Positions 8,361-64,000 of a DNA stretch of 64,000 bases are shown here, in pieces. The translations under genes and the position numbers were made by a program. Location of the stretch: positions 138,973 to 202,972 of the forward strand of contig CASEFL010000001.1 of the NCBI GenBank assembly GCA_949287245.1, in the 5' to 3' direction. Positions within the stretch are counted from its first letter, which is position 1. Each line of letters starts with the position of its first letter. The notes beneath the pieces were generated by a model that searched no databases, had not been told where the DNA came from, and worked only from the letters and a program-made list of their open reading frames with translations. The DNA comes from an uncultured Bacillota bacterium. GTDB lineage: Bacteria > Bacillota_I > Bacilli_A > RFN20 > CAG-826.

Positions 8361-9219
8361 ACCCTAATTTACCTAGCATTCGCACATCATCCCGCCAATG
8401 AGGAGAAGCAACAACAAAGCAATGCAATCGCACATGTTTAGAAAAACGTGAACGCAAATCCTTTTCTGCATTAGAGCGAATTTTTTCGATCATTTGGCCG
8501 TTTTTCCCGATAACAATTCCTTTTTGAGAGTCTCTTTCAACATAAATATGAACTTTTGCTTCAATTTCTTTCTCATTTTCCTTACAAGAATCGACATGAA
8601 CAGCGGCTTGATGAGGGACCTCGTTATGAAGAAGCAAAAGCATTTTTTCGCGAATACTTTCTTGAATGAAATAGGAAGTATCTTTATCGGTTGTTGTTCC
8701 TTCTTCATAAAAGGGCAAAGATTCTGGTAGCTGTTTTTCCACCCAAAGGCGCGCATCTTTTAAGCCGAAATTGTTCTTAGCGCTCATCTCAAGATAAGGA
8801 ATTCCAAATAAAGAGGGGATTTTTTCTTTAATTTTTTCCATTTCTGGAGCCGTCATTAAATCAATCTTATTAAGCAATAACAAAATAGGAGCATCACTTT
8901 TTATACGGCGAAAAGCTTTTGCCGCTTCCTCTAAATTTTCATGGACATCTACAAGAAAAAGAATTGCATCTACTCCAGATAAAGCACGCCGTGCTTTCCG
9001 CATCATCTCTTTTTCTAATGAGTTACTTCCTTCCATTAAACCAGGAGTATCAATAAAAGCAATTTGTGCACCACTATCTTCATAAATTCCTAAAATATCT
9101 TCTCTAGTCGTTTGCGCTTTTGGGGTAACAATAGCCACTTTTTTGGATAAAAGAGCATTAAGAAATGTACTTTTTCCTGCATTAGGAAGGCCTAAGATTG
9201 CAACCGTTCCCGCTTTCAT
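8338..9219 (-). CDS. era: GTPase Era
   Basis: 293-aa ORF with G1 'GLPNAGKST' and G3 'DTPG' motifs, an NKID motif and a C-terminal KH domain. It overlaps cdd and recO, indicating an operon. Confidence 0.95.
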   Translation of the reverse strand: MKAGTVAILGLPNAGKSTFLNALLSKKVAIVTPKAQTTREDILGIYEDSGAQIAFIDTPGLMEGSNSLEKEMMRKARRALSGVDAILFLVDVHENLEEAAKAFRRIKSDAPILLLLNKIDLMTAPEMEKIKEKIPSLFGIPYLEMSAKNNFGLKDARLWVEKQLPESLPFYEEGTTTDKDTSYFIQESIREKMLLLLHNEVPHQAAVHVDSCKENEKEIEAKVHIYVERDSQKGIVIGKNGQMIEKIRSNAEKDLRSRFSKHVRLHCFVVASPHWRDDVRMLGKLGYGKRRDR

Positions 9220-57489: not shown

Positions 57490-57806
57490 GGAATTATTAC
57501 TACCGCTACTGCGTATCCTCCGTCATGACTAATTGATAAAGGGTAAATTTCCCCACAAACTTCTAGGCTTGGACCCTCATTTTCATAATGATGCACCATA
57601 ATTTCTTTAAAGGGAAGAAAACCAAGACCTTTTTGTATGGCTTTTAAATAGGCTTCTTTTGCTGCCCAAATGCCCGCAAGAGTAGAAGAAGGATGGGATG
57701 AGTTTTCATAATAGGCATGTTCTTCTTCCGTTAAAATCCGATTTAGAAAATGAGAAGAGGGCGAGGAAAGGCGTGAAATTTTAACTAAATCAATTCCCAC
57801 CTTCAT
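57486..57806 (-). CDS. acpS: Holo-[acyl-carrier-protein] synthase (4'-phosphopantetheinyl transferase, AcpS type)
   Basis: 106-aa ORF with an 'MKVGIDLVKISR' start, a 'WAAKEAYLKA' region and 'SISHDGGYAVAVV'. Confidence 0.85.
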   Translation of the reverse strand: MKVGIDLVKISRLSSPSSHFLNRILTEEEHAYYENSSHPSSTLAGIWAAKEAYLKAIQKGLGFLPFKEIMVHHYENEGPSLEVCGEIYPLSISHDGGYAVAVVIIP

Positions 57807-60540
57807 CGCTTTTCTCCTCTAAAAGACGTAAAGAAGCTTCTAATTCTTCCTCCGTATGAATCAGTACTTTGCTTCCTTTTGCGGAAGTACTTGTGGGCCC
57901 GCTAGCAACAATTCCTTCCTTTTTTAAACGATCAAAAATGCTCCCGGCCTTAGGAAAACCAATCCCATACACTCTTCTTAAGGCGCTAACCGAGCAATAA
58001 TCTAGCGTCATAACATAAGCGCGAACTTCTTCGTAAAATTCATTATCCGTTGCTTGTTTTAAGGAAGCGTGATCGACTTTTGGAGCGGTCGCAACCGTGA
58101 TAATACTTTCTTCTTTTTCTTCTAAATTTAAAAATTTAGGATCGTAATTTGCCGACCTCTCTTGACGAATAAAATCGCAAACTTCACGAATTTCTCTTCC
58201 GGAAACATAGCAGCCTTGAGCACGGACAAGACCTGTTCTTGATAATTGAGCACAAGAAATCAACATATCTCCATGCCCAACAAGATTTTCTGCGCCTCCT
58301 TGGTCAAGAATCGTATTACTATCCACATAAGAAGATACAGCCAAAGCGACACGAACAAGTAAATTTGCCTTAATTGTGCCATTAATTACGTTTACACTAG
58401 GACGCTGAGTTGCGACAACAAGATGAATACCCGCAGCCCGAGCCTTTTGGGCAAGTTTAACCACCGGTTCCCCAATCATTTTGCAGCTATCCACTAAGTC
58501 TGCATATTCATCGATAAAGCAAACAATGACAGGAAGTGGCTCTAAATCATAATCCGGTGCATAATCGCGGTTAAATTCATTAATGCTACTCACATCCGCT
58601 GCCGAGATAATATCGAAGCGTCGCTCCATTTCATCGCATAAACGGTCAAGCGCAACTTTAGCCTGTTGAGCATCGGTGATAATAGGACAAAGAAGATGAG
58701 GAAGTTCGCGATATTTATTAAGTTCTGCTTTCTTAGGATCAATCATTAAAAGGCGCAAGTCTTCAGGACGATTTCTCATGATTAAAGACATGATTAAACC
58801 ATGCATGAATACGGATTTTCCTGAACCAGAAGTTCCCGCGACTAACATATGAGGGAAATCTCCTAAATCTCCTGAAACGCATTCCCCGGAAATTGTTTTA
58901 CCAAAAGGAACCGCCAAAGGCAATTTTTCCCTAGGCTTCATGTGTTCCATCATTTCCCGTAAGCCAACCGTTGTTGTTTCGGTATTGGCAATTTCTAAGC
59001 CACTATAAGGAGAACCCATAACAACTTCTTCATAACGGGTTTGTACTCCACCAAGACGCACTGATAAATCTTTCACAAAACGGGTAACGGTAGAAACAGA
59101 AACGTTTTTCTCAGTTTGAATATCATAACGCGTTACCGAAGGACCAATCGTATATCCAGCAATAGAAGCCCCAACCCCTAAATCCATAAAGGCTTGATTG
59201 ATTGCGTCTTTTCTTACCTCGCATTCTTTATGAATTTCTTCTTCATTTTCTAAAGAACCATACGCTTTTAATAAGTCCAAAGAAGGAAATTCATAAGAGG
59301 CGCGTTCTTTTCTCTTTCCCTGCCCTAACTTCATTAAAGTAATTTCTTCTTCGCTTAATGCTGGTCCTAAATCCACCTCAGGAAGAGGGAGAGTTTCTTC
59401 CTTTTTTTCTTCTAAAGTAACAGGACGTGTCTCTTCTTGTTCGTTTGGTAAATTGGGAAGAGTAACGGATTCAGCTTCTTTTTTAAGAGGAGCCTCTTCT
59501 AAAGAAGAAGAAAGAGACACATTTTCTTCTTTCTTTTCTTCCTTAGAAGAATCATAAGGAGTTTCTTTTAAAAGAGGGCTTTCATCTTTCTTCTCGATAG
59601 AAGAAAGGACACTCTCTTTAATCTCTTCCTTTCTAGATCTTTCAAAAGAATCATCAAAGGAAGGGGCTTTTTCTTCTTTTCTTAGGGTAGATTCCCCTGT
59701 CTTGATAGAAGAAGGCTCTTCTTTAGAAGATGGCGTTACATCTTGAGCATGGACTATTTTTTGCGAAACGGATTCCTTATTTTCATCGAAATAAACAGGT
59801 TTTAAACCATCATCATGAGCCGCTTCTGAATAACGTTTTGGCGGGGCGATAAATTCTTCCGCTACATCAACTTTTGGTAAGTCCATATAAAGTTCACTTC
59901 GAGAAGTTGAACTTTTCTCTTCTTCTACTTTTAAAGTAGGAACCTCTTGGGGAGAATTCGTCATCTCTTCGTGAGGGAGGTAGCTTTTCTTTTCTTCTTG
60001 GAAACGAAGACGCGATTTATATAAATCCATCCATAAAAAGAAATAAGGAAAAAGAAAGGAAACAATACCAAGCAACAAAAGCAAAGAACCAATAAAGTAG
60101 GATAAAGGAAGGCCTCCAAGAGAAAATAAACTCATTAAGCCATAACCTAAAATTCCTCCTCCGGCATCAAGAGAAAAATACATTTTGATGGCTTCTTCTT
60201 CCTTAAGAAATTGAACAAGGGACTCACTATAGGAAGAAAAATCAGATAAGGAAGTGGTAAAAAGAAGGGAAAATCCAAGTAAGAGAAAGAAAAAAGCAAG
60301 AAAAGCATTCCCACAAAATCTCTTCTTTGGAAGGGAGTGATAAATCACAAGAATCACACCCGTAACCATAAAAAAAGGAAGAACAAACCAAATTCCTGCT
60401 AAACCAAAAAGATAAAAAAGAGGAAAAACAAGATAACAAAAAGAGGTGCCGGGAGCTAAAAAGAGCAGCAAAGAAAACAAAAGGAGTGTGGCTCCAAGAG
60501 CAGAAGTTACTTTATCTTTCCCGTATACGCGTTTACTCAT
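57790..60540 (-). CDS. ftsK: DNA translocase FtsK/SpoIIIE
   Basis: 916-aa ORF with N-terminal TM helices, a long acidic linker, the motor domain with Walker A 'GTSGSGKS', and the C-terminal gamma wHTH. Confidence 0.9.
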   Translation of the reverse strand: MSKRVYGKDKVTSALGATLLLFSLLLFLAPGTSFCYLVFPLFYLFGLAGIWFVLPFFMVTGVILVIYHSLPKKRFCGNAFLAFFFLLLGFSLLFTTSLSDFSSYSESLVQFLKEEEAIKMYFSLDAGGGILGYGLMSLFSLGGLPLSYFIGSLLLLLGIVSFLFPYFFLWMDLYKSRLRFQEEKKSYLPHEEMTNSPQEVPTLKVEEEKSSTSRSELYMDLPKVDVAEEFIAPPKRYSEAAHDDGLKPVYFDENKESVSQKIVHAQDVTPSSKEEPSSIKTGESTLRKEEKAPSFDDSFERSRKEEIKESVLSSIEKKDESPLLKETPYDSSKEEKKEENVSLSSSLEEAPLKKEAESVTLPNLPNEQEETRPVTLEEKKEETLPLPEVDLGPALSEEEITLMKLGQGKRKERASYEFPSLDLLKAYGSLENEEEIHKECEVRKDAINQAFMDLGVGASIAGYTIGPSVTRYDIQTEKNVSVSTVTRFVKDLSVRLGGVQTRYEEVVMGSPYSGLEIANTETTTVGLREMMEHMKPREKLPLAVPFGKTISGECVSGDLGDFPHMLVAGTSGSGKSVFMHGLIMSLIMRNRPEDLRLLMIDPKKAELNKYRELPHLLCPIITDAQQAKVALDRLCDEMERRFDIISAADVSSINEFNRDYAPDYDLEPLPVIVCFIDEYADLVDSCKMIGEPVVKLAQKARAAGIHLVVATQRPSVNVINGTIKANLLVRVALAVSSYVDSNTILDQGGAENLVGHGDMLISCAQLSRTGLVRAQGCYVSGREIREVCDFIRQERSANYDPKFLNLEEKEESIITVATAPKVDHASLKQATDNEFYEEVRAYVMTLDYCSVSALRRVYGIGFPKAGSIFDRLKKEGIVASGPTSTSAKGSKVLIHTEEELEASLRLLEEKSDEGGN

Positions 60541-60601: not shown

Positions 60602-62275
60602 TTAAGGAACTTCTACAAGAAGCGGAATAATAAGGGGTTCCATTTGACAGCGCCCTCTTAAATAACGAACGCATTTATCATAAAGATCACTTTTCATTGT
60701 GGGTAAATCCACTTCTTTTCTTTTTAAGCCTTCTTCGACAATACTGCGGGCAATTTTATTCATTTCTCGTCTTAAAGGCTCAGTCTCTTTTAAATAGGCA
60801 AGACCGCGAATTTCTACTTCTGGTCCAGCAAGAAGAAGCCGCCGTTTTTTAGATAAAGTAAGCCCAATAAGAATGGTTCCTCCGGCTAATTTTTCACGGT
60901 CTTGAATGACTTCTTTGCCGACATCACCCACGCTACTTCCATCAATTAAAACATTGCCGTGTGGTATCCCTTCATCAAGAGTCCGTAATCCTGTTTCGTC
61001 AAAAATCGCCGTAATTCCGTCATCTAAAATACAAATATTTTTGTGAGTTAAGCCAATACCCATAGAAGAGATAAGTTGAGCATTCGCAAGTAAATCTTTA
61101 TAAAATCCTTTCACAGGTAAATAGTACTTTGGCTTAAGCAAAGCCGCCATCATCTTTAAATCTTCTTCCGAAGCATGCATACGCCATAATTGTTTCTTAG
61201 ATAAAGAAAGCACCCGTACACCGCTTCGATAAAGTTCATCAAGAGCATCAGTAGCCTCAATTTCAGTATTATCGTTTCCTGGGGCCGCCATAATAAAGGT
61301 ATCAGTTTCCTTTAAATAGCACTTATGCGTTTCATTGGTCCCAGCCGCTAAAAGAGCGATTTTTCCATATAAATCTCGTCCCGCCCCTAAAATTAAGACA
61401 ACAATGTCTTTGTCACGCAGGCGATGTAAATCTTCATAAGGAGCATAATTGTTTTTTGGAATAAGTAATTGATGGACTTCTGCAGCGCTTTCTAATAAAG
61501 AACGAGTTTCTTCATCATAAGGAATAATCTTTTTTCCTGTTTCTTTAGCAATACGAATCAGTTCGTCAATATTGAAATAATTCGAGGAGAAAAGAGCACA
61601 AAAAACTCGACCTGGAGCATCTTTTATGGCTACATCAATGTGTGAGGAAATTCGGTGTTTTGGTGCGGTATAACCAGGTTTTTCAGCGTAAGAGGATTCT
61701 GAAAGCAAGACCAAAGTAGGAGTTTCAGCTAACCGCGCGATGGCGTTAATATCGTGCAAATAATTGGGATCTGCAGAGTTTTCAACAACAAAATCACCGG
61801 TAAAAACAACATGCCCCAAACTCGTTTCAATCGCAAGACCACTACTTTTAGCAATGGAATGGGCCGTAGAAAAGAAATGAATTTTTCTTCCTGCCACAAC
61901 AAAATCGGCACTACTAGCAACGGGATGTTCATCAAAAACAAGATCGCTTTTCCCAACGGATTTTGCAAATAAATGGAGCATGGCAAGGGTCACATCTGAG
62001 CCATAAATAGGGGCTGGCGCGCGGTTATAAACATAAACAAGCGCACCAATTTCATCATCGTGTCCGTGCAAAAGAAAATACGCTTTAATACGCTCTTTGT
62101 TCTCAAGCAAATAACTTAAATCTGGGGCGACATAATCCACTCCAGGCATTGTGCGATCTGGGAAGCGTAAACCACAACCAATGACAAATAAATCCCCGTT
62201 GATATCAACGCAATAACAGTCTTTCCCTGATTCGTCTAAGCCTCCAAGAGCAAATATTTTAACGACATCCTTCAT
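60602..62275 (-). CDS. rnj: Ribonuclease J
   Basis: 557-aa ORF with the 'HGHDDEIG' MBL motif and the beta-CASP and C-terminal domains. Confidence 0.95.
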   Translation of the reverse strand: MKDVVKIFALGGLDESGKDCYCVDINGDLFVIGCGLRFPDRTMPGVDYVAPDLSYLLENKERIKAYFLLHGHDDEIGALVYVYNRAPAPIYGSDVTLAMLHLFAKSVGKSDLVFDEHPVASSADFVVAGRKIHFFSTAHSIAKSSGLAIETSLGHVVFTGDFVVENSADPNYLHDINAIARLAETPTLVLLSESSYAEKPGYTAPKHRISSHIDVAIKDAPGRVFCALFSSNYFNIDELIRIAKETGKKIIPYDEETRSLLESAAEVHQLLIPKNNYAPYEDLHRLRDKDIVVLILGAGRDLYGKIALLAAGTNETHKCYLKETDTFIMAAPGNDNTEIEATDALDELYRSGVRVLSLSKKQLWRMHASEEDLKMMAALLKPKYYLPVKGFYKDLLANAQLISSMGIGLTHKNICILDDGITAIFDETGLRTLDEGIPHGNVLIDGSSVGDVGKEVIQDREKLAGGTILIGLTLSKKRRLLLAGPEVEIRGLAYLKETEPLRREMNKIARSIVEEGLKRKEVDLPTMKSDLYDKCVRYLRGRCQMEPLIIPLLVEVP

Positions 62276-62844
62276 CGTTCATTCCTCCGAAAGGCTTGAT
62301 ATTTTCTCATCATTTTTCCATCGCTTAACCGATGAAGTTCAATTTTCCAATCTTCGTGAATAATCATATACGTGGGTTCATTTCCATTTTTAGGAAAACC
62401 AAGCGAACCAGGATTTAAAAATAGTCCTTCTTTTGTATCATCTATTAAATAAAGGTGGGTGTGGCCGAAACAATAAACATCATAAGAACGGGAAGAAAGC
62501 ATAAGAAGAGATTCTTCGTGTCCATGAAATAAGGCCACTCTTTTTTGGTTTAAATCAATTTCCGAAAATAAAGGAACCGCAAAAGGAATTTCATCTTCCA
62601 TTCTGTCGCAGTTCCCCTTTACCGAAAAAAAGTTCCCTTGTTCATAAAGCCCTTTTAAAGCCTCTCGTACATAGGCTTCGTCTAGATCATCAGGAATTCC
62701 ATTTCGTGGCCCATAATAAATTAAATCGCCGGCCATAAGAATAGCATCTGGCTTTTCTTCTTTAATCCTTTCAAGAAAAGAGATGCAGCGCTCTTTACGC
62801 CCATGTAAATCACTCGCAAAGAGTATTTTTCCGTTTATGTTCAT
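62272..62844 (-). CDS. Calcineurin-like metallophosphoesterase (YfcE-like)
   Basis: 'LFASDLHG', 'MAGDLIY' and 'FHGHEE...GHTH' motifs. It overlaps the rnj start by 4 nt. Confidence 0.75.
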   Translation of the reverse strand: MNINGKILFASDLHGRKERCISFLERIKEEKPDAILMAGDLIYYGPRNGIPDDLDEAYVREALKGLYEQGNFFSVKGNCDRMEDEIPFAVPLFSEIDLNQKRVALFHGHEESLLMLSSRSYDVYCFGHTHLYLIDDTKEGLFLNPGSLGFPKNGNEPTYMIIHEDWKIELHRLSDGKMMRKYQAFRRNER

Positions 62845-62896
62845 AGTCGTTCCTCGTTTCTATTATACAAAAAGAATCACCTTCTTAGGGTAAAAA

Positions 62897-63625
62897 TTAG
62901 AGAAGTGGCATCTTTTGTACACCAAGAATGCATTCTAATCCTGCATAAAGATTACTTCCCCGTTCATATGCGTGATCTAAAAGATAAGATTCTTGCCAAG
63001 AGGCAAGATAGTCTTCTCTTCCTTTTCCTAACTCTTCTAATAATTTCTTAAAAGCAGAAGCATCTTCTGCAAATTCTTCTTCAAAACGGAAAGCGAATTC
63101 TTTCTTTTCATGCGTACGACAATTTGCTTCTCCATAAAGAGCATGTTCTAAATTAATCGAAAAATAACAAAGAAGATGAGGGATTTTTCTTCTTTTTATC
63201 CATAAAGTTCTTCCTTCTACAAGAAAAAGTAAATTGTCCGCCTTTCTTTTTCTTGAAAAATATAAGCTTTCCTTTTCTTCTACATAAACTAGGCACTCCT
63301 CCGGAACATAAGTTTGACGAGAAATGCTTTTGCTTTCAATATAGGTGGACTTTGGGGCAAAAGAAGCATCTAAATCCGTAAGTTGAACAATCACATCAAT
63401 ATCTTTGATGGTGAGTTTTTTCTCTTGGCAAAAAGTCTCGATTTCTTTTTTGATGCCATCGCGCGTGGAAGTTCCTTTCTTTCCCCCTTTCGCGGTTAAA
63501 TCCCCATTGGCAGGATGGAAAAATAAAGGACGCTCTTCTCCAAGAGTAAGAAACAAATTGATTAAGGGACTTTCTAAGGTGGTTTGATCAGTCACCCCTT
63601 CGACTAGAAAAAGAAGAACGCCCAT
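62897..63625 (-). CDS. Toprim-like protein (RloB/DUF4276/DUF4435-type), predicted nuclease partner of the upstream ATPase
   Basis: 242-aa ORF with an N-terminal 'LLFLVEGVTDQ' (conserved Glu) and a DxD motif 'LTDLDASF', together a Toprim signature. Its start abuts the ATPase stop codon. Confidence 0.5.
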   Translation of the reverse strand: MGVLLFLVEGVTDQTTLESPLINLFLTLGEERPLFFHPANGDLTAKGGKKGTSTRDGIKKEIETFCQEKKLTIKDIDVIVQLTDLDASFAPKSTYIESKSISRQTYVPEECLVYVEEKESLYFSRKRKADNLLFLVEGRTLWIKRRKIPHLLCYFSINLEHALYGEANCRTHEKKEFAFRFEEEFAEDASAFKKLLEELGKGREDYLASWQESYLLDHAYERGSNLYAGLECILGVQKMPLL

Positions 63626-64000
63626 TTATTCTCCTTTTCCTAATTTTGACGCTCGTCTCATAAAAGAAGGAATATCTTCCCCGGGATATTCTTCTTTTAA
63701 GGCTAAGGAACGGAGATAAGCATCCCGTAAATTCGCCCCTTTTCGCACGGATAATTCAAAAAACCGTCCGGCGACAAGCAAAGAGGCAAAGCGGGCATGA
63801 TGATGAGGCAAAGTTTCAAGTGTCCGTAAATTATGGGAAGTAAAAATAAGAGAACCTTTTCCTCTTATGTATAAAGATTTCATCAATTCTCCAAATAAAT
63901 ATTCAAAAATCCCTGCATCTACTTCATCTAAAATTACCCATTCTTTTGAAGAAGATAAATAGGCACTTAAAGGGAGGAAAAGAGAAAGTAATTTTCTTGT
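63626..64000 (-). CDS. AAA_21/ABC-type ATPase (C-terminal part; gene continues past the window end)
   Basis: An open frame runs from the window end to the stop at 63626-63628, with a Walker B/D-loop 'WVILDEVDAGIF' and an H-loop 'SLIFTSHNL'. The listed ORF 63626..63886 is just the in-frame tail; its 'start' is a TTG inside the gene. Confidence 0.6.
   Translation of the reverse strand, partial: TRKLLSLFLPLSAYLSSSKEWVILDEVDAGIFEYLFGELMKSLYIRGKGSLIFTSHNLRTLETLPHHHARFASLLVAGRFFELSVRKGANLRDAYLRSLALKEEYPGEDIPSFMRRASKLGKGE

Follow-up and report, generated by a model that had tools for sequence, protein, structure and literature searches.

Locus organization

The window, the whole 64,000-nt stretch of DNA analysed here, covers positions 138,973-202,972 of contig CASEFL010000001.1 in assembly GCA_949287245.1, and all positions below are window positions unless a locus is named. 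At its right edge lies a two-gene system on the minus strand, consisting of an ABC ATPase and a stand-alone Toprim-like protein of 242 aa from an unannotated family. The ATPase gene (63626..64000) is represented by its C-terminal 124 residues and stop codon (125 codons), and the N-terminal 252 of its 376 residues lie beyond the window edge. This fragment is a single stop-free frame that begins TRKLLSLFLPLSAYLSSSKEWVILDEVDAGIFEYLFGELMKSLYIRGKGSLIFTSHNLRTLETL and terminates in TAA (63626-63628). The Toprim gene (62897..63625) starts with an ATG at 63623-63625 that directly abuts the ATPase stop codon, leaving a gap of zero nt. An earlier prediction made from the sequence alone (the original prediction) had described a truncated ABC ATPase at the edge and a gapless Toprim reading frame, and both are confirmed on the minus strand.

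Within the ATPase fragment, the Walker B residues D277-E278 (63923-63928) fall in the stretch 'WVILDEVDAGIF', and the H-loop His308 (63833-63835) falls in 'SLIFTSHNL'. The 242-aa protein carries the motifs 'LLFLVEGVTDQ' at residues 4-14 and 'LTDLDASF' at residues 82-89. Homologues exist for each gene, and the ATPase motifs and putative catalytic residues are invariant in alignments. Both genes are real.

Downstream of the Toprim gene, on the same strand, are a YfcE-like metallophosphoesterase (MPE; 62272-62844; Metallophos_2 1e-23), RNase J (rnj; 60602-62275), and the 916-aa FtsK (ftsK; 57790-60540), in agreement with the placement of the pair near rnj and ftsK in the original prediction.

The ATPase

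The full ATPase was recovered by an exact look-up of the 242-aa protein, which led to an ENA metagenome scaffold (L001) with the identical locus. Extension past the window edge, a check proposed with the original prediction, thus yielded the complete 376-aa protein. The gene order on L001 is rpsO, pnp, the 376-aa ATPase, the 242-aa protein, MPE, rnj, and ftsK.

The ATPase contains the motifs GYNGSGKS (Walker A), ESEGTRKLL (signature), VILDEVD (Walker B), and FTSHNL (H-loop), and GYNGSGKS, ESEG, ILDEVD, and TSHN are invariant in family alignments. It matches Pfam AAA_21 at an E value of 1.5e-13 (52 bits, with a cut-off of 27) and SMC_N weakly, and an NCBIfam scan of the full protein gave no match near any curated cut-off. 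Its best PADLOC models are AbiLi (2.3e-18), AriA (4.9e-15), and mad3 (7.9e-12), and HEC-01A is also matched. AbiLi (PDLC02335) is the top PADLOC model for all 10 family ATPases scanned (1e-13 to 1e-29), with AriA second. E values for AbiLi are 2.3e-18, 3.2e-16, and 7.8e-13 in window-clade ATPases and reach 1.9e-29 in plasmid and metagenome relatives, with family ATPases covering the model only in part (positions ~45-277 of 326).

The predicted fold of the ATPase is nearest to Rad50/SMC heads and to the defence ATPases PtuA, retron Ec83/Eco7, Eco8 OLD, AriA, and GajA. Fold comparison scores are 15.2 for Eco8 OLD, 15.0 for AriA, 14.8 for RecF, 14.7 for GajA, and 13.4 for Ts OLD, and ABC-transporter domains score 12.2 or less. 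Searched against PDB sequences, the ATPase profile gave P-loop matches only, and no solved structure was otherwise detectably related. On the basis of the model, the ATPase is a predicted SMC/Rad50-like ABC head of the defence-associated AAA_15/21 group.

The original prediction had raised a RecF/RecN/SbcC-like or transporter identity for the upstream reading frame as the finding that would count against it. The protein is instead an AAA_21 ATPase with a predicted Rad50/SMC/PtuA/AriA-type head. Both a transporter subunit and a RecF/RecN/SbcC-type housekeeping ATPase were rejected on the curated-model results, on the transporter-domain comparison, and on the ATPase itself, in which no long coiled coil was found.

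Window-clade ATPases are short, at 313-378 aa versus about 460-510 aa typical, and lack ~90-100 residues of the middle insertion. The C-terminal half is well conserved, including a family-specific tail (NLRDxYLR...).

The Toprim partner

The AlphaFold model of the 242-aa protein has a pLDDT of 93, and its nearest folds are the Toprim domains of OLD-family proteins and GajA. Structure prediction, another of the checks proposed earlier, therefore points to a Toprim fold. In 40 of 40 diverse family members, the conserved positions are E9, G10, D/E13, D42, D84, D86, Y106, S156, N158, E/D160, K174, W210, and R222, and H161 is kept in 39 of the 40. The Glu of 'LLFLVEGVTDQ' and the DxD of 'LTDLDASF', which the original prediction had read as a Toprim signature, are both present and invariant across these relatives.

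The Toprim Glu motif E9-G10-x-T12-D13 (63587..63601, minus strand) lies at the end of beta-strand 1, with E9 and G10 invariant and position 13 always Asp or Glu. The DxD motif D84-L-D86 (63368..63376, minus strand) lies at the end of beta-strand 3, with both Asp residues in 40/40 members. S156-x-N158-L-E160-H161 (63143..63160, minus strand) opens the helix after the last core strand and is the putative counterpart of the OLD T506-x-E508 metal-B site. The invariant K174 (63104..63106, minus strand) is in the C-terminal helical region and would correspond to K562, the catalytic lysine in B. pseudomallei (Bp) OLD. The two-metal machinery of Bp OLD consists of E400 and E404, D455xD457, T506xE508, and K562 from the helical domain (PMC6755086), and the E9...D/E13 spacing equals that of E400...E404 (PMC6755086). 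Judged by sequence order and secondary structure, the conserved acidic residues and lysine would parallel the Bp OLD two-metal set.

The 242-aa protein contains an internal repeat of 'LLFLVEG(V/R)T', also described in the original prediction. Copy 1 (63590-63616, minus strand; residues 4-12) forms beta-strand 1 in the model, and copy 2 (63206-63232, minus strand; residues 132-140) forms a helix and then a strand. The copies are identical at 8/9 residues, a level reached by 0/400 composition shuffles, and at 19/27 positions of the DNA. Copy 2 is conserved only in the nearest relatives (61-64% identical proteins) and not elsewhere in the family. The repeat itself therefore stands, and a structural duplication does not: domain duplication is ruled out by the lineage-specific occurrence of the repeat and the different predicted secondary structure of its copies.

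Searches with the protein gave no match in Pfam, PADLOC, or NCBIfam (E ≤ 1) or in PHROGs (E ≤ 0.001); the PADLOC library dates from 2023 and the Pfam library from 2025, and a newer catalogue may already hold the family. A word-indexed search with the protein gave only 13 relatives. An exhaustive profile search gave 1,519 clusters (50% identity) at E ≤ 1e-3, including 613 at E ≤ 1e-30, and among the best 150 members listed, length ranges from 215 to 304 aa and is mostly 225-275 aa. None of the best 120 relatives of a 40-sequence profile has a Pfam domain, and any name given is "hypothetical protein"; the named taxa among these 120 are Clostridia, Ruminococcaceae, Oribacterium, Lacrimispora, and Collinsella. 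The suggestion that the protein is a divergent or undescribed member of its group is borne out by these searches.

Forty diverse family members were also scanned individually against Pfam and PADLOC. Pfam DUF4276 is matched by 7/40 members (best E 4.8e-4), Toprim by 5/40 (best E 0.0029), and OLD-like_TOPRIM (PF20469) by 3/40 (best E 0.0065), the last without a match to the window protein at E ≤ 1. Several PADLOC HEC-01B models, mad4, and PDC-M12B are each matched by 2-6 of the 40 members (best E 0.0013). The best PADLOC match of the family consensus is HEC-01B at 1.5e-4, confined to the first ~80 residues, which form the Toprim core. The family alignment, used as a profile against PDB, found no significant relative.

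These matches bear on whether the pair is a bona fide member of a named system, namely AbiL, RloA/RloB (which is linked to type I restriction-modification), PARIS, or MADS mad3/mad4 with HEC-01. Such membership would account for the top PADLOC models of the ATPase, AbiLi followed by AriA and mad3, and for the weak matches of some Toprim members to DUF4276, HEC-01B, and mad4 over the N-terminal core (best E 1.5e-4 to 5e-4). However, RloB, DUF4435, AbiLii, and AriB have no match in the window protein, in 45 other members, or in the family consensus. A genuine RloB from a Veillonella locus (L093:235-813), used as a positive control, matches PADLOC AbiLii at 1e-14, and hhalign of the family profile against this control gives a probability of 1.6%. 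Neither the window nor the fetched loci have hsd or methyltransferase genes beside the pair. Membership in a named system is thus quite unlikely, and the Toprim partner is, as far as its sequence can tell, a large unannotated family distinct from named effectors.

Pairing and mobility across the family

On the same strand as the Toprim gene and immediately upstream of it, an ATPase of the family is encoded in 67/68 metagenome loci whose sequence extends 1,400 nt or more beyond the Toprim start and in 8/8 IMG/VR viral contigs with an intact upstream region. The same arrangement is found on all three plasmids, B. thuringiensis pBTHD521-5, Ruminococcus albus pRUMAL01, and Lysinibacillus capsici pFN9A. 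The plasmid genes overlap by 8 nt and are annotated "AAA family ATPase" or "ATP-binding protein" and "hypothetical protein", and on pBTHD521-5 and pRUMAL01 the pair is near tyrosine recombinases. One family member is carried by a Clostridioides phage-plasmid, and in Paracholeplasma morum the pair adjoins AAA_13 and AAA_21 genes. The ATPase and Toprim protein are a near-obligate pair that is mobile on plasmids, viral contigs, and variable islands.

Two further observations concern individual loci. On IMG/VR contig 3300013426_000064 (L099 6924-8246), a second, more distant AAA_21-like ATPase lies directly downstream of the pair and matches the family profile at an E value of 2.7e-14. In Veillonella caviae (L092-L094; 5001-6833, L093 1-816), the island that holds a family copy also contains an AbiL-like pair of AAA_15/21 ATPase and RloB and an ATPase_2/DUF234 gene, and it looks like a defence island.

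In that V. caviae copy, the ATPase is intact and the Toprim gene is truncated to 133 aa, its N-terminal half. This is the order of loss expected if a toxin goes first, and it is consistent with a selfish addiction (toxin-antitoxin) module without a current defence role, which would persist since loss of the ATPase antitoxin unleashes the Toprim toxin. The tight coupling of the two genes and, at the window site, long persistence with clean joint loss of both genes point the same way, and AAA and TOPRIM_OLD pairs have been validated as toxin and antitoxin (PMC10440598). However, toxin-antitoxin behaviour and defence are not exclusive, and the known relatives PARIS and AbiL are abortive-infection systems. 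Strict conservation of catalytic and ATPase motifs over a very large family also argues for a function beyond persistence, which leaves pure addiction as an unlikely account.

History at the pnp-rnj site

The nearest PNPase relatives of the window are encoded by metagenome-assembled genomes titled uncultured Bacilli, "Bacillales bacterium UBA4691/UBA743", and similar. The pair is found just downstream of pnp in five related lineages of uncultured gut Bacilli. L001 carries the window's own sequence, with 100% identity in PNPase, RNase J, ATPase, and Toprim. In L002 (GCA_944376605.1), identity to the window is 88% for PNPase, 81% for RNase J, 54% for the ATPase, and 61% for the Toprim protein. 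The respective values in L005 (Logan assembly of SRR23925013) are 81%, 56%, 32%, and 46%. In L106 and L107, from human gut metagenome, they are 82% for PNPase, 33-34% for the ATPase, and 42% for the Toprim protein, with RNase J outside the locus. Two further Toprim relatives, P0002 and P0003 (62-64% identical), are on short contigs and were left out of this positional comparison.

Nine related genomes (L009-L017), with PNPase 75-80% identical to that of the window, lack the pair, and seven of them (L009-L013, L016, L017) retain the array pnp...(MPE)-rnj(-ftsK). The downstream DNA of the other two, L014 and L015, is too short to show rnj or ftsK. The pair is likewise absent from all 80 pnp neighbourhoods fetched, as judged by tblastn and profile search. 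Absence from close relatives had been named as a check on the original prediction, and the nine genomes provide it.

Measured by the identity of PNPase and RNase J, the window genome and the pair-less genomes are roughly equidistant from L005, and the simplest history is therefore old residence at the site with later losses. Under this history, the pair would be an old resident that was inherited vertically at one site after pnp and lost on other branches. Its GC content is 0.35-0.37 and its GC at third codon positions (GC3) is 0.25-0.27, compared with a window mean of 0.373. A recent horizontal insertion is ruled out by this neighbour-like GC and GC3 and by a site common to relatives whose Toprim proteins are only 42-64% identical. 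A universal housekeeping gene is ruled out by the absence of the pair from the nine related genomes.

Divergence of the pair outstrips that of pnp and rnj and is similar to that of FtsK (61% and 43% identity). The window FtsK has a long Glu/Lys/Ser-rich low-complexity linker between its membrane domain and motor, and this linker explains the low identity of FtsK between relatives (43-61%).

On L001, the interval from pnp to the ATPase holds a strong terminator-like hairpin (8820-8835; GGAGGGTTCGCCCTCC with a T-run behind it), which is separated from the ATPase start codon by 34 nt. A search of this interval for a sigma-70-like promoter detected none. The 52-nt gap between the Toprim gene and MPE-rnj (62845-62896) contains no terminator-like site, and transcription from the pair may continue into MPE-rnj by read-through.

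This arrangement raises the alternative of a domesticated housekeeping module that acts in RNA processing or turnover, as does the Toprim ribonuclease RNase M5, or in DNA maintenance, co-expressed with pnp, rnj, and ftsK. A site directly after pnp that is common to five lineages despite deep divergence would suit such a module, as would the same-strand flanking genes, the uninterrupted run into MPE-rnj, the neighbour-like GC of the pair, and its streamlined ATPase. A precedent is Cran1, a non-defence OLD-family protein that is essential for the archaeal cell cycle (PMC12796447). Against it stand the nine genomes without the pair, seven of which visibly keep the array, and the strong terminator-like hairpin between pnp and the pair. 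The pair also evolves faster (ATPase 54/32% and Toprim 61/46% in L002/L005) than PNPase (88/81%) and RNase J (81/56%), and the remaining family is found on plasmids, viral contigs, and variable islands. Domestication is accordingly a very improbable explanation. A narrower version, in which an OLD-like module entered the pnp-rnj interval in the distant past, was streamlined, and was domesticated as an RNA-processing or surveillance nuclease co-expressed with RNA-degradation genes, is a long shot. If true, it would be a bacterial parallel to Cran1.

Several side observations were made at this site. In L002 (8820-12455) and L005 (6116-9725), two FAD-dependent (DAO/GlpA-like) oxidoreductase genes and a DUF1667 gene lie between the Toprim gene and MPE, and in L002 the DUF1667 is fused to the phosphoesterase. 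These oxidoreductase and DUF1667 genes have been lost from the window genome, where the gap at 62845-62896 remains. The rpsO gene at L001 6079-6459 is called as 126 aa versus 89 aa in L002 and L005, probably from an over-extended start call. L012, L014, and L015, titled 'Escherichia coli', 'Lachnospiraceae bacterium', and 'Paludibacteraceae bacterium', encode PNPase 75-79% identical to that of the window, and their taxonomic labels look wrong. L012, the only one of the three with enough downstream DNA, has the Bacilli-type pnp...rnj-ftsK array.

Proposed function and significance

The pair is probably an ATPase-controlled OLD-type Toprim nuclease conflict module, serving in phage defence or as a toxin-antitoxin system and self-contained in its two genes. 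Its absence from nine related genomes supports this reading, as it indicates accessory status in the lineage. The abutting genes, the AAA_21 identity and defence-type fold of the ATPase, and the near-obligate pairing also speak for it. The SMC/Rad50-like AAA_21-type ABC ATPase would be the probable sensor and regulator, and its gene is probably translationally coupled to the Toprim gene. The stand-alone OLD-type Toprim protein would be a metal-dependent nuclease and the toxic effector, which the ATPase would keep inactive within a complex. Once an infection cue had been relayed by ATP binding or hydrolysis, the nuclease would be freed or switched on. Its two-metal cleavage of nucleic acid, whether tRNA/RNA or DNA, would halt the growth of the infected cell.

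This proposed mode of action follows PARIS and the AAA and TOPRIM toxin-antitoxin pairs. In PARIS, six AriA subunits hold AriB captive until a phage protein is detected in an ATP-dependent manner, whereupon AriB is freed as a tRNA-Lys nuclease (PMC11464382). Pairs of AAA and TOPRIM_OLD proteins have experimental validation as toxin-antitoxin pairs (PMC10440598). The toxicity, sequestration, trigger, substrate, and anti-phage activity of the module described here are inferred by analogy. OLD-type Toprim enzymes act on DNA in the case of the Bp OLD nickase/nuclease (PMC6755086) and of a Class 1 OLD that is reported to nick DNA (PMC12392090). They act as tRNases in the case of AriB (PMC11464382) and of P2 OLD, which is reported to cut tRNA anticodon arms (PMC12445682). 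Both kinds occur among OLD-type Toprim enzymes, and the nuclease of the pair may act on DNA or on tRNA/RNA.

Several points weigh against a conflict module. Despite deep divergence between carriers (RNase J only 56% identical), the pair has stayed at a single chromosomal site, and its GC matches the surroundings, both of which are atypical of fast-turnover defence genes. The same-strand array from pnp to rnj, with no terminator-like site before the downstream genes, makes a housekeeping link possible. The shortened window ATPase may have lost sensing or assembly functions.

The Toprim family comprises at least 1,500 clusters at 50% identity and occurs in Firmicutes, Actinobacteria-type gut taxa, plasmids, and viral contigs. 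It appears to be an overlooked effector family, nearly always coupled to an AbiLi-like ATPase, and it introduces no new principle. If the family were named and tested, defence catalogues would gain a distinct split-OLD subtype. Its compact effector (~240 aa) would also help in asking what directs OLD-type Toprim nucleases to DNA or to tRNA. The window copy, with its minimal ATPase and long-stable site, would serve as a test case for module persistence or repurposing in small host-associated genomes.

Comparison with known systems

Coupling of an ABC ATPase to a Toprim domain characterizes a major branch of bacterial immunity that is under active study, with P2 Old, Gabija, PARIS, AbiL, and MADS3-4 among its systems. 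The OLD-like superfamily is marked by intact AAA_15/AAA_21-type ATPase motifs and by the Toprim Glu and DxD, all of which are found in the window pair. Known systems are grouped as OLD classes 1-4, to which AbiL and MADS3-4 have been added (PMC11464382).

PARIS (AriA with the DUF4435 protein AriB, 'Class 4' OLD-like) is likewise laid out as two neighbouring genes, in which the Toprim nuclease follows the ATPase, and its AriB effector also has a Toprim fold with Glu and DxD. However, the window effector is 242 aa whereas AriB is about 35 kDa, and the window ATPase is 376 aa with a short middle insertion whereas AriA is about 55 kDa. The window partner also gives no DUF4435 (PF14491) or AriB signal. 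PARIS is switched on by anti-restriction proteins, Ocr among them, and its target is tRNA-Lys.

AbiL of Lactococcus lactis (AbiLi and AbiLii) is likewise a bicistronic system of an ATPase and a Toprim-superfamily effector. AbiLi is the top defence model for every family ATPase examined, and other family members are plasmid-borne. The partner is not RloB (PF13707) or AbiLii, which match 0/46 members and not the consensus, compared with 1e-14 for the RloB control. Unlike RloA/RloB, the pair has no hsd or methyltransferase genes beside it, either in the window, where its neighbours are pnp, MPE, rnj, and ftsK, or in the fetched loci of relatives.

The OLD nucleases (P2 Old and Ts OLD of Class 1; GajA and Bp OLD of Class 2) share with the pair an ABC ATPase coupled to a Toprim domain, and the acidic residues and lysine of the pair are their putative equivalents in the same order. 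They differ in that the window ATPase and Toprim are separate polypeptides, and the window protein has no Pfam OLD-like_TOPRIM match. The UvrD-type helicase or reverse-transcriptase partner of OLD-type systems is also absent from the window system.

The weak signals of the family point to MADS mad3/mad4 and HEC-01A/B, in which an ATPase is paired with a DUF4276 (PF14103) protein, and the window ATPase matches mad3 and HEC-01A. However, the DUF4276 and HEC-01B matches cover only the first ~80 residues and are below any family threshold, the window protein itself has no match, and there are no methylation genes nearby.

The assignment in the original prediction to the PARIS/RloAB/OLD kind, as a split ABC/AAA_21 ATPase and Toprim pair, therefore holds for the general kind and not for membership in PARIS, AbiL, or RloAB. 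Because the partner fails the defining tests of AbiL/RloAB, PARIS, MADS/HEC-01, and the Pfam OLD Toprim, it is classed as a separate split OLD-like effector. The general kind is known, and what would be new is a split OLD-like system with a distinct, unannotated Toprim effector family.

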